Part shown: in pieces, positions 41,505-51,842 of the stretch
How the letters are laid out: each line of letters begins with the position of its first letter
Position numbering within the stretch: the stretch's first letter is position 1
DNA from: Escherichia phage YUEEL01
DNA: 64,000 nt
Strand: one strand, 5' to 3'
Sequence record: NC_054935.2
Translations under genes and position numbers: made by a program
Notes under the pieces: generated by a model
What the model saw: the letters and a program-made list of their open reading frames with translations, nothing else
Database searches by the model: none
What the model was told of the DNA's origin: nothing

Positions 41505-42161
41505 TTATTTAGCCCTTCCTAATATTCTGGCCGCCTGAGCACATATTGATTCAAGGCGGTCATTACTTATATGATCATTTCTATACCAGTACATGGTTAT
41601 CGTTCCAGCATAGATATTATCCAAATTAAAATATGGACAACTGTACATGTAGTTTATTTCGGGAGTAGGCTTTTTAGTTGGTAAAAAAGCAAATTTTGAG
41701 TCGGAATAATAATGACGTCCATTTAAATGAACTGTATATTCATCCATAGTTTTATCAACAGGATATCCTCCAAGTGATTTTTCACTTATTGTTGAAGGTA
41801 ATTTTCCTTCATATGCTATAATATCAACAAAATAGTTTAAGTTTTTAGGGCGGAAAGAATACACCGCACTAAAGTCTGCCTCAGATGATATATGAACTAT
41901 CTGGAGTTGTTCCAGGGCGACAGATTCAAAGCGTGCATTTCTTTCCTTTTCAATAATTTCACTGTATGTTTCATACTTTGATTGCTTATAGTACTCAAAG
42001 AAACTATCTCCCCTATACCAAACAATCGCCATCATAAATAAAAGAATTACGACAGCTACCCGGGAAGCAAGAACCTTCCCGGTAGCGTTATCTTTGAACA
42101 AGCGATCTAGAACACCAAATAGAATATCAGAGGGCGAAAATGATATTCTAGGTGCTGCCAT
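41505..42161 (-). CDS. t: holin T
   Basis: 218 aa; single N-terminal TM segment then large periplasmic domain; position after gene 38. Confidence 0.9.
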   Translation of the reverse strand: MAAPRISFSPSDILFGVLDRLFKDNATGKVLASRVAVVILLFMMAIVWYRGDSFFEYYKQSKYETYSEIIEKERNARFESVALEQLQIVHISSEADFSAVYSFRPKNLNYFVDIIAYEGKLPSTISEKSLGGYPVDKTMDEYTVHLNGRHYYSDSKFAFLPTKKPTPEINYMYSCPYFNLDNIYAGTITMYWYRNDHISNDRLESICAQAARILGRAK

Positions 42162-42191: not shown

Positions 42192-42974
42192 TTATACTCT
42201 TGGACCATATATTGCTCCAACATTTTGCCACGTTGGAGCAGACCCTATGACGGCATAACCAGCAGCACCGCCATCGTATTCATATCCTTGACCACGAATA
42301 TTACATCTACCTCCTGCGGAGCCAACTTCACCACCAGACCCGCCGCTATAGATACCGTTCACAGACCCTGAGCCTGGTGCAGAAATAGTACCAGCAGTTG
42401 CTCCTGATTGCATATCAATAGATCCGCCCGGCGCGCCAAACGGACGACCGCCACCACCGCCAAAGGTCAATCTCATTTGTGAAAAAGGAGAATAATATCC
42501 GCCGCCGCCACCGCCGCCGCCGCCAGCAATAGCTCCGCCATTATTAATTCTTAGTCTCCCACCAATATCATTTTGAATACAATGACCCCCAGCTGAGCCA
42601 GGACTATTGCTACCGCCATTACCGCCACGGCCATACATCGTTACACCATGTATATTCAGTTGAACATATTCATTCGGTGTATCTCCGTACATGAAGAATA
42701 AAGGAACATCTTTAGAATATGATACTAAATCTCCAGTGATATTAAACACTATAGGTGTACTACCTGCCTCAAAACACCTATCTCGGAACCATTGACCATT
42801 GAAGTTATGATCTGCTCCAAGTGTATGAATAATTTCTCTTGAGCGACCTGCAAATTGACTCATCCAGCAAGGAACACCTAATCTTAATTGACCAGCCGCT
42901 TGACTCATCCATCGTTGTCCTGTTTCATTTACGGATGAACTACCAATCCAACCAGGAACACCAACTACTGCCAT
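42192..42974 (-). CDS. 38: gp38 tail-fibre adhesin of the T2/T6 type (glycine-rich motifs)
   Basis: 260 aa; conserved N-terminus [13 protein letters not shown]; poly-Gly blocks separated by variable segments. Confidence 0.85.
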
Positions 42975-43007
42975 AATTTATCTCCAAAGGGGCAATGCCC
43001 CTTGTTA

Positions 43008-46000
43008 TTAGAATTTAAAGTATTTACCAATTTTGCGAGCAATTTTAGTGAAGAAAGGCGTTTTTAATTCTTTAATTTCTTCACTCATTTCCTGAATGGC
43101 CTTAATTAAAAGAGCATTCACAGCGGAGTTAGAAATTGTCAGAACTTCGTCTGGTTTATCAAGATTGCCAATTTTCGAAATATTAATCGCTTCTGGTAAT
43201 ATTTCTTGTAAATCCTGCGCGATAATGCCGATCTCATGACCGATAATTTCACGGTCGGATAATGATTTAACTTTATCGTAGGTTTTAACTTTCAGTTTAC
43301 CGATTAAATCAGTTGCATTTCCTATATAATCTTCGATGTTTTCTTTGAGGCGACGGTCTGATCGAATATAAACATCGTTAAAGTTTCCGTTACCAGTGGC
43401 ATGAAATTCTCCACTTGCATTGAATTGATAATCAGCAGACTGAACATGGAGAACCGCTGCCGCAGTATTATTACTATCACCGGGACAATGAACGTCCAGA
43501 GCAGCGATGTAGTTACGCCCCCAATCAACCGCTTTCCAAATAGCATGAGCACTATCAACGCTTTGTTGACAGTCAAGCAACAAACCAGCAGGGCGATCTC
43601 TCCAATTCACATAAGCACCACCAGAAACTTCACCGCGAATAAGCCCTTGATCTCCGGCATAAGGAACACGCTCTCCCACTTTAATCATTGCGCCCTGGAA
43701 GTGATGACTAAATGAACCCCCATGATTATTGCGAATATGTAAAATACCCTCATCTGTAGCCCAGATAACAGCCTTTTCTGCATCGCTATCATCTTTAAAC
43801 CAGATGTGGCGAGCACCAACAGAGTTTTTGATAGTGATCCCGCTAGATCCATGCACGGTAAAAGTGCCAGCAACATCAAACGTCAAACTGTTATCTGTCC
43901 TGCGTTCTGTATAGAAGTGATAACCTTTGGAATCACCGACTTCCATCACTGCCGAGCGACCAACTTCTGAATTTCCCCAATTATTGATATGGAATTGTTC
44001 AGAGCTATTATTCATCTGATTTAGGTATAATGTACCATCAGTAAATGTTTCGCCAAAGAAACGAGTTTTAATTGCACCTGTCGCTAAAGTACGTTCAGTG
44101 GAAAAATGGGCGCCTTGACTATCTTCTAACTGGATGATGTTATCACGAGCATTATTACTATCACCCCAATGGTTAAATTTAAAATAATCTCGTGATCCTA
44201 AACGTCCGGCATCAAAAGTCAGCAAGCCTTTCATGTTAATATCACCGCCAAAAAATGCGGTGAGAGAATCACGTTTTAATTTTAAAACGCTACCACGAGT
44301 AGTACCACCCAAAGTAACATCACCAGTGTTCAATTCATAACTGAAAGGTCTATTTGCATTAAAGTTTCCATCTTTATCATTCTCGTCAGTAGAAAGTAGA
44401 TAAAACCTGCTACTATCAGCACGCCAAATAACATCATAATTACTACTAGCGGTCATACGGAATGCATTAGATGAGCGGAATTTAACTTCTGTATTAAATG
44501 TTGTAGTTGATTTAAACGTTGTTGAACCACCAAAGTTAACAGCACCATTAAAATCTTGTTGAGCTGTCCATTTGTGGCTACCATCTTCAAGAACAACACG
44601 ACGAACTCTGAAACTTCTATTTCCCGGATTACCAGCAACACGAACGACAAAATAACGGTAGTTAGCTTGTGACACAGTACCACGCCAAACCTGAACAGTA
44701 CGCCCTGTGCTAGTGTGTTCGCTAGGACCGACGGAAAACAGAATCAAGTTTCCGTCAATCGTACCCCAATCCATATTTGCTGGCATGTTCTTTATTTTGT
44801 TCAAAGGAACGCTAAACATACTGCCAGGAACAAAATCAAATGTGTTCCAATCTAGCTCCGCTAATTGAGATTTAACACCACCCATACCCAAAGTAATTGG
44901 CAGAGAATAAGATGTGTATACTTCGTTCCATGCACCCCAAACACTATTAGTATATGCACGCTCAAAAATACGTCCGCGAGTAGTTGTACCTGTTCCGGCA
45001 GTAGTAAATTTTTGGAAAATAGCACCACCAGAAGCACGCTGTTTAACTTCTAGCAAACCAACAATAACGGCTGGTAAACCTTCACCGGTAGGACAGTTAA
45101 TAACGGCATCAGTGCCTAAAATGTTATATAACCCAGGAGCTTTAAAATCATTCAGATCTCCATCATAGAAAGTCGCTGGTGTGCCATGACCAACCTGCTT
45201 CCATTCCTCCCACTTAGGTGCACTAGCATCCCATGCAGCAGCGAGACAACGAGTATAAACCATACCCATGCGGGTAGTATAACGCTGCGTTCTTGTGTAT
45301 AAACCACCTTCAAATATTTCTAAAAATCCTTGTGCGGCTGATCCTTCTTCTGGATAATGGCGATCAAATGATGCGATTGCGCTTGAACTGTTTCTCCATA
45401 AGCCACAATGTTCTAATTCTCCCAAGCTATCAAGGTCAATCGTTTGTGAAAGTGGACGAGTTGACGCTTGAACATTACGCCACACACCCCATGGACCATC
45501 GACGCCATTCCATTTAGCAGATAAGGAACGAATATAGACGTTACCAGATCTTACAGTATAACGCTGAGTGCCAGCAAATTGGCCGGCCACAAATACTTCT
45601 AGTACACCTACGGCATTTTCTTCTGGGAATTTATTTGCTGGTTGCGCATTTGTTGAAGTAGATTTCGACCAAACACCAAGATATTCTTCAATGGGCCCAT
45701 ACGTATCTAAATTAGCATCAGTAGGTAATTCGCCATTATTTTTTATAAACGTTGTGCTATTGACATTTATGTCAGATGGAGTTAGCGTGATATCTTTTGA
45801 CCCATCAAAGGATATACCATTAATTTTTCGTGCTGTTTTTAATTTCGTTGCAGTTGCAGCGTTACCTGTTAAATTTCCAATTATATTTCCATTAACAGTT
45901 AAAGAACCATCAATTGTTCCTCCATATTTTAAACCTAATTCTATAACACTGCCTGAGTCATCTTTTGTGAAAATTGTTTTATCTTTTAAATTAATAGCCA

Positions 46001-46085
46001 ATTCACCTTCGGCTAATACTGAAGCAGCAGGACGTTGACCTGCAGTTTTGCTTCTTTTAAATTGTATTTGTTTTAAAGTAGCCAT
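43008..46085 (-). CDS. 37: gp37 long tail fibre distal subunit
   Basis: 1025 aa; position between 36 and 38. Confidence 0.9.
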
Positions 46086-46767: not shown

Positions 46768-46775
46768 TATTTATA
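46768..46775 (-). promoter_or_regulatory. late promoter for genes 36-37-38
   Basis: TATAAATA on the minus strand about 25 bp upstream of gene 36. Confidence 0.6.
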
Positions 46776-51834: not shown

Positions 51835-51842
51835 TATTTATA
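51835..51842 (-). promoter_or_regulatory. late promoter for gene 34
   Basis: TATAAATA on the minus strand about 35 bp upstream of gene 34. Confidence 0.6.

Follow-up and report, generated by a model that had tools for sequence, protein, structure and literature searches.

The gp38 adhesins of the T2/T6 type are built on a published plan that combines five glycine-rich motifs (GRMs) with four hypervariable segments (HVSs) (Trojet 2011, PMC3157838). The structure of the S16 protein shows ten polyglycine-II (PGII) helices stacked as three layers, from which five loops emerge at the distal end (Dunne/Leiman, PMC6851490), and the crystal structure of PP01 gp38 disclosed the same PGII lattice with distal loops named A to E (PMC12892980). 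A single S16 gp38 monomer caps the gp37 trimer via three tryptophan 'prongs' (PMC6851490). S16 gp37 frees itself of a C-terminal chaperone by autocleavage, and the homologous site in Tequatrovirus and fPS fibres reads DVYIR/SD, the slash marking the cut (PMC7917993).

Genetic studies have tied these proteins to adsorption and to the choice of receptor. Amber mutants of T6 g38 keep a normal morphology but fail to adsorb, and no deletion that removed a single GRM or HVS from T6 gp38 was ever recovered (PMC3157838). When the gp38 of CM8 was exchanged from HVS2 onward for OmpA-type sequence, the receptor changed from Tsx to OmpA. Point substitutions may have comparable effects: the combination Q167R/M168I/G208I (T6 numbering) in PST gp38 adds OmpA and Yersinia (PMC3157838), and Q206L in RB51 switches the receptor from OmpF to OmpW (RB68). 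In PP01, residues of loops D and E, Tyr230 included, cross-link to loops 5 and 7 of OmpC (PMC12892980).

Recognition of Tsx in E. coli was reported for the T6-like adhesins of RB3, RB5, RB6, RB7 and RB14, and one set of four HVSs was described as essentially common to almost every Tsx binder (Trojet et al., PMC3157838). In agreement with this, tsx was the outer-membrane RB-TnSeq match for T6, Bas35, Bas37, JK23, RB14 and CM8 (bioRxiv 10.64898/2026.04.02.716166, supplement), and, for Bas35, dependence on tsx was backed by genetic complementation (PMC8594841). For the T6 and Bas37 adhesins, predicted complexes with Tsx are reported with an ipTM around 0.6.

Here, we compare with these systems the g38 gene of Escherichia phage YUEEL01, as found in a window of 64,000 nucleotides that comprises the whole stretch of DNA analysed (sequence record NC_054935.2). 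The best explanation of the locus, which we hold with high confidence, is that it encodes gp38, the receptor-recognising adhesin made by a T6-like Tequatrovirus, whose fibre tip most likely binds Tsx. The family, fold, mechanism, allele class and exact protein are already known. An exact-sequence look-up in NCBI and UniRef returned the deposited YUEEL01 gp38 (QXF95261.1 / YP_010133111.1), 100% identical over 260 residues, and QXF95261.1 is annotated both as 'tail fiber protein; host specificity' and as 'Receptor-recognizing protein gp38'. A receptor study of YUEEL01 was not found in the literature searched.

Genomic context of g38

A sequence-only reading of the window had placed a 260-aa gp38 at positions 42192-42974, which correspond exactly to an open reading frame on the minus strand. 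The gene and its neighbours are as follows.

42192..42974, minus strand: g38 coding sequence, an ATG-to-stop open reading frame of 260 aa; receptor-recognising adhesin gp38 of the T2/T6 type, T6-like allele (by sequence and predicted fold)
43008..46085, minus strand: g37, distal long-tail-fibre subunit of 1025 aa, with Pfam Gp34_trimer and Peptidase_S74; its trimer would be capped by gp38
43008..43361, minus strand: gp37 aa 909-1025, C-terminal intramolecular chaperone; predicted auto-cleavage after DVYIR(908), which would expose the gp38 docking face
41505..42161, minus strand: holin T gene (t), open reading frame of 218 codons with a Pfam match; g38 ends 30 nt upstream

In the list of open reading frames, g38 lies downstream of g37 across a gap of 33 nt, and open reading frames of 216, 371 and 1289 codons are found farther upstream of g37 on the same strand. 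Together with Pfam matches, this list gives the gene order g34-g35-g36-g37-g38-t on one strand, with asiA on the opposite strand; the T6, T2 and T4 annotations share this canonical T-even order. Elsewhere, the window matches Tequatrovirus genomes at about 98% identity. Compared with shuffled sequence, a hairpin in the g37/g38 intergenic region showed no added stability (z = -0.63).

The first 694 residues or so of gp37 are 89% identical to T6 gp37, while its distal third differs from the T6 protein. Pfam places Peptidase_S74 at gp37 aa 909-966 (1.2e-13), and the motif DVYIR/SDRRLK at aa 904-914 is followed by a Peptidase_S74 module of 117 residues. By analogy with the fibres in which this cut has been described, gp37 of YUEEL01 would likewise cleave itself.

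Domain anatomy and predicted fold of gp38

By sequence and by predicted fold, gp38 is a full-length T2/T6-type adhesin. The Pfam family GP38 (PF05268) matches aa 47-260 over the full model (positions 1-218) with 242.6 bits (cut-off 25, E = 5.5e-72), and Gp38_N (PF21721) matches aa 1-42 with 70.3 bits (cut-off 25, E = 1.3e-19). A further match, at 8.6e-113, is PHROG 2056 (annotated 'tail fiber protein; host specificity'), and NCBIfam returned no match for the protein. A homologue was detected by tblastn in 785 of 50,697 phage records. Against PDB sequences, phmmer retrieved only the receptor-binding domain of PP01 gp38 (9V85, 5.2e-80) and S16 gp38 (6F45_D, 3.8e-50). The first of these entries is PP01 gp38 and not T2 gp38.

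Modelling leads to the same two proteins. An AlphaFold2 model of gp38 built with 81 homologues reached a mean pLDDT of 87.9 and a pTM of 0.81, and values were low (39-70) only in the first 40 residues or so; this is expected in the absence of gp37 from the model, since aa 1 to about 40 need that partner. With this model as query, Foldseek retrieved 9V85 (E = 2e-27, target-normalised TM 0.88, rmsd 2.3 Å) and 6F45_D (E = 2.7e-21, target-normalised TM 0.77), which were the sole PDB matches below E = 1e-3, and indeed below E = 1. A β-helix combined with a PGII sandwich is therefore the predicted fold of gp38. The PP01 (O157 OmpC) and S16 (Salmonella OmpC) proteins have the same succession of attachment domain, β-helix and PGII sandwich with loops A-E, but their loops are unrelated in sequence to those of YUEEL01 and their receptor differs. 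The earlier assignment of the protein to the T2/T6 adhesin architecture is thus borne out by Pfam, by PHROG 2056 and by sequence and predicted-fold homology to two solved gp38 adhesins.

Four regions can be delimited along the gene.

42837..42974, minus strand: aa 1-46, N-terminal gp37-attachment domain (Gp38_N), with the putative tryptophan prongs W9, W22 and W37
42633..42836, minus strand: aa 47-114, central β-helix scaffold, N-terminal part; entropy 0.77 bit; modelled with pLDDT 78-96 as β strands; aligns with the PP01 and S16 structures
42255..42632, minus strand: aa 115-240, specificity domain, a predicted PGII sandwich in which GRM1-5 alternate with HVS1-4; fold matches 9V85 and 6F45
42192..42254, minus strand: aa 241-260 and stop, conserved C-terminal strands closing the β-helix; modelled β strands at 242-256

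Glycine accounts for 36.5% of the residues at aa 115-240, against 11.4% at aa 1-114. To describe conservation, an alignment of 124 sequences was assembled from YUEEL01 gp38, 119 cluster representatives retrieved by a search of 5.8 billion proteins, and the T6, T2, Bas38 and AR1 proteins; column entropy was computed on the residues of YUEEL01 gp38. Within the specificity domain and up to the C-terminus, the succession of segments and their mean entropies are the following.

aa 115-121: GRM1 (GRGGNGG), 0.29 bit
aa 122-128 (42591..42611, minus strand): HVS1 (SNSPGSA), 1.81 bits; corresponds to PP01 loop A; identical in T6
aa 129-146: scaffold segment, 0.56 bit
aa 147-159: GRM2, 0.58 bit
aa 160-171 (42462..42497, minus strand): HVS2, 2.42 bits; corresponds to PP01 loop B; keeps Q166 and M167
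aa 172-184: GRM3, 0.49 bit
aa 185-210 (42345..42422, minus strand): HVS3, 1.59 bits; its two ends match PP01 loops C and D
aa 211-222: GRM4, 0.96 bit
aa 223-234 (42273..42308, minus strand): HVS4, 2.06 bits; counterpart of PP01 loop E, with Y231 aligned to PP01 Tyr230
aa 235-240: GRM5 (GGAAGY), within the block 235-260 of mean 0.88 bit

Across the 124 homologues, the GRMs are thus conserved (0.29-0.96 bit) and the HVSs are hypervariable (1.59-2.42 bits), which upholds the earlier proposal of variable segments lying between glycine blocks. The conservation pattern of the glycine blocks is not due to chance. An alignment of 81 sequences similarly contains 44 invariant columns, including most of the GRM glycines, for a mean column identity of 60%. 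The sequence-only reading had drawn four poly-glycine blocks, and all four strings are indeed present (aa 117-130, 146-164, 171-184 and 211-222). However, their boundaries were misplaced: the first block lumps GRM1 together with HVS1 and the return helix, the second runs into HVS2, where the residues YYSPF are variable, and GRM5 was overlooked.

The conserved N-terminal domain announced by the same reading is recovered as the Gp38_N match and as three conserved tryptophans. In the 81 sequences, W9 is invariant and W22 is conserved in at least 90%, and in the 124-sequence alignment entropy is low at W37; all three align with tryptophans of S16 gp38.

Receptor class of the YUEEL01 adhesin

The closest relatives of YUEEL01 gp38 detected by tblastn are the proteins of OES_C-1 and OES_C-2 (99.2% identity), followed by RB3, RB5, RB6, RB7, RB9 and RB10 (98.1%), RB14, JK23, KarlGJung (Bas37) and fPS-65 (97.3%), CM8 (96.9%) and T6 (93.1%). 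It belongs to a 155-member cluster at 90% identity, together with the proteins of RB3/RB5, Bas35, Bas37/JK23/fPS-65, L14 and HP3.1. The adhesins of RB3/RB5, Bas37, Bas35 (WilhelmHis), JK23, RB14 and CM8 are 95-98% identical to it, with 5-13 differing positions.

The prototype Tsx adhesin, T6 gp38 (AXN58309.1; AF052605), has 261 residues against 260, a GRM identity of 98.6% and the same g37-g38-t context. Its 18 substitutions and one indel relative to YUEEL01 fall mostly in the β-helix scaffold at aa 52-114. In or near the loops, the differences are S165P, D187N, A194G, A199S, S210N, S213N and Y231S (YUEEL01 residue given first), and S165P is the only one that distinguishes the two proteins in HVS2.

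An alignment with the T2, T6, K3 and Ox2 proteins had been suggested to assess kinship. In our comparison, M1, FL08, FL18 and AV119 took the place of K3 and Ox2 as representatives of the OmpA class. T6 proved close, but T2 (FadL/OmpF) is a distant relative within the same family: it follows the same GRM/HVS plan, and its tblastn alignment was confined to aa 1-114 (49.6% identity). Across the receptor classes, the HVSs compare as follows (identity to YUEEL01 gp38 over the HVSs).

T6 (Tsx): 89.5%
FL18 (OmpA): 56%
M1 (OmpA): 31%
AR1, PP01-like (OmpC): 19%
T2 (FadL): 18%
FL08 and AV119 (OmpA): 17%
Bas38 (OmpF): 15%

Within the T6-like group, HVS1 is identical and HVS2-4 are near-identical. The HVSs of YUEEL01 are about 93-96% identical to those of RB5, Bas35 and Bas37/JK23, which represents 2-4 HVS differences from RB5, Bas37 and Bas35. 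YUEEL01 gp38 thus carries the T6 set of HVS1-4. As this set is that of T6, RB5 and Bas37, whose carriers depend on Tsx, Tsx is the predicted primary receptor of YUEEL01, by analogy with relatives that differ from it by 5-18 residues. The sequence-only reading had listed OmpF, FadL, Tsx and OmpC as candidate receptors. Tsx, now the predicted one, was among them, but the list did not include OmpA, which serves K3, Ox2 and M1 as receptor. That the variable segments set host range, as it also stated, agrees with the published genetics on near-identical proteins.

OmpF had been suspected as a receptor from the fPS phage paper. This candidate was rejected: fPS-65, whose gp38 is 97.3% identical, shows no OmpF dependence, and the HVS identity to the OmpF allele is 15%. 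On Yersinia, which lacks Tsx, fPS-65 yielded only LPS-heptose mutants (PMC7917993, PMC3157838), so that, depending on the host, T6-like alleles can also exploit surface structures of another kind.

The sequence would suffice, by inference, to assign YUEEL01 to the T6-like, Tsx-dependent adsorption class. Such an assignment would help in composing phage cocktails with non-overlapping receptors and in foreseeing resistance by loss of tsx. The feature itself is ordinary; its reading as gp38 is correct and useful for annotation.

Alternative readings and proposed mechanism

Two other readings of the locus deserve consideration. T4 also has a g38 between g37 and t, the product of which is an assembly chaperone of gp37 that stays outside the virion, and some GenBank records of gp38 homologues still bear the old name 'distal long tail fiber assembly catalyst'. 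A chaperone role for the YUEEL01 protein could be proposed on these grounds, yet gene name and map position are all that it shares with T4 gp38 (NP_049864.1). The T4 protein, of 183 aa and not a virion protein (PMC6851490), is devoid of the GP38 Pfam domains and matches neither the GP38 nor the Gp38_N model, whereas YUEEL01 gp38 possesses the full adhesin architecture and predicted fold. BLASTP between the two gave a best E of 1.7 over 12 residues, that is, no similarity, as expected from the earlier claim that this gp38 is not of the T4 assembly-chaperone type. Additionally, YUEEL01 gp37 bears an intramolecular chaperone domain of its own, which T4-type gp37 does not have. Among the related systems, gp38 was seen bound to the gp37 tip in the S16 crystal structure (PMC6851490), and T6 g38 amber phages assemble with a normal shape while being unable to adsorb (PMC3157838). 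Direct comparison (E = 1.7) and domain content rule out the T4-type chaperone, to which we would grant a vanishingly small probability.

The other reading keeps the adhesin family and its mechanism but supposes that residues S210, S213, Y231 and D234 have shifted or broadened the receptor specificity, for instance towards Tsx plus OmpA or LPS, towards a second or different porin, or towards a divergent Tsx of pathogenic E. coli. All receptor-mapped relatives have a serine at position 231 in the alignment and most have N210 and N213, where YUEEL01 has Y231, S210 and S213. S210 is replaced by N in T6, RB14, JK23, CM8, Bas35 and Bas37 and is kept in RB5; S213, in GRM4, is N in the relatives and G in RB5; D234 is common to YUEEL01, T6, RB5, RB14 and CM8 and is N in JK23, Bas37, fPS-65 and Bas35. 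The HVS3 sites that are polymorphic in the T6-like group are 187, 194, 199, 202 and 210. A shift would be conceivable insofar as Y231 aligns with PP01 Tyr230, the loop E residue that cross-links to the receptor OmpC, and one to three HVS substitutions suffice to change or expand specificity (RB51/RB68, PST). In HP3.1, whose gp38 carries Q166R in the alignment, resistance is linked to ompA (PMC8092219). However, the known switch positions of YUEEL01 gp38 are those of T6: with Q166, M167 and G207 (Q167, M168 and G208 in T6 numbering), the protein lacks the known changes that add OmpA and Yersinia. Y231, a candidate for a unique and possibly specificity-changing novelty, was also read in P0001, UGKSEcP1/2, L14, HP3.1 and OES_C-1 when the 260-aa members of the 90% cluster were surveyed; shared by several members of this cluster and by OES_C-1, it looks like an ordinary polymorphism. 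Likewise, 16 of 19 substitutions of PP01 Tyr230 are tolerated (PMC12892980), and the four HVSs of YUEEL01 are the set that Trojet et al. found in nearly all Tsx binders. We therefore consider a shifted or broadened specificity unlikely.

The reading that we prefer, a T6-like adhesin recognising Tsx, suggests the following course of events. After trimerisation, gp37 would cut off its 117-residue C-terminal intramolecular chaperone behind DVYIR908, and one gp38 monomer would dock on the bared tip of the trimer through aa 1-46, with W9, W22 and W37 inserted into three equivalent hydrophobic pockets. This docking of gp38 on gp37 is inferred for YUEEL01 by analogy with the solved adhesins. The rest of gp38 would form a small β-helix, from which two long excursions would build a three-layer PGII lattice out of the five GRMs. 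HVS1-4 would then lie as loops at the distal end of the lattice and constitute the receptor-binding face, most likely contacting the nucleoside channel Tsx at its extracellular loops. Reversible binding to Tsx would be followed by rearrangement of the baseplate, binding of the short tail fibres to the LPS core and contraction of the tail. The presence of gp38 in the virion, its essential role in adsorption and the dependence of specificity on the HVSs are carried over from the literature on near-identical proteins, and would presumably apply to YUEEL01.

The g38 locus offers a clean textbook case of a conserved polyglycine scaffold bearing swappable specificity loops. The comparison with the gp38 of the OmpA phage M1 illustrates this point: identity amounts to 97% for aa 1-114 and to 94% for the GRMs, against 31% for the HVSs. 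Such a near-constant scaffold with divergent HVSs points to a cassette-like exchange of the loops.

The shaft beneath the T6-like adhesin

By sequence alignment, gp37 (43008..46085, minus strand) is a mosaic. Its residues 1-694 share 89% identity with gp37 of T6, and no alignment with the T6 protein was obtained for residues ~695-908 (about 43362..44003, minus strand), which lie ahead of the DVYIR cleavage motif. Over its first 25 kb, the window shares ~98% identity with known Tequatrovirus genomes; for the DNA of the whole locus, the top match, to U115 of a phage collection, reaches only 92.6%. Because the distal part of gp37 diverges from T6 and the locus finds no closer DNA match than this, the T6-like gp38 would be carried on a non-T6 distal shaft.

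Receptor-binding loops and docking domain of gp38

The comparison with gp38 of phage M1 (P0022, OmpA class) opposes 97% identity over residues 1-114 and 94% over the glycine-rich motifs (GRMs) to only 31% over the hypervariable segments (HVSs). Judged from these identities, the pair presents a clean case of loop-cassette exchange through recombination in the conserved GRM-coding DNA.

Another comparison concerns HP3.1, a therapeutic phage evolved in the laboratory, whose gp38 (P0130) carries Q166R within HVS2 according to sequence comparison. The position is that of PST Q167R (T6 numbering), tied to OmpA and Yersinia recognition by Trojet et al. (PMC3157838), and secondary resistance to HP3.1 is reported to arise via ompA (PMC8092219). 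The latter paper names the change 'Gln9 to Arg9', in a long tail fibre gene. The RefSeq gp38 of HP3 is 187 aa long, and a truncated gene model may be the cause of this numbering.

In the docking domain, alignment revealed that Leu replaces the third conserved Trp prong (W37L) in gp38 of Shigella phage CM8 (L007), a phage that is nonetheless viable and Tsx-dependent. The inferred docking therefore has no strict requirement for Trp 37.

The representative of the 90% cluster (P0001, PJZ22119.1), 98% identical to the window gp38, is labelled 'receptor-recognizing protein [Bacillus cereus]' and encoded on a 171.5-kb contig. It almost certainly stems from a T-even phage that contaminated a Bacillus assembly rather than from a gene of Bacillus.

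Candidate transcription signals from g34 to g38

Candidate signals, all on the minus strand
42985..43003, minus: GC-rich hairpin of 7 bp, AAGGGGC-AUU-GCCCCUU, after the g37 stop and ahead of the g38 Shine-Dalgarno
46768..46775, minus: T4 late-promoter consensus TATAAATA, coding strand, directly upstream of g36
51835..51842, minus: the same consensus, coding strand, directly upstream of g34

The hairpin is not followed by a U-run, and its stability shows no excess over shuffled controls (z = -0.63); in fPS-65, the equivalent spot is annotated as a 'terminator' on the opposite strand. The late-promoter consensus occurs 4 times in the window, fewer than the 10 expected by chance, so that location, and not number, is the sole argument for late promoters. 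Its placement fits late expression of g36-g37-g38 from a common transcript.
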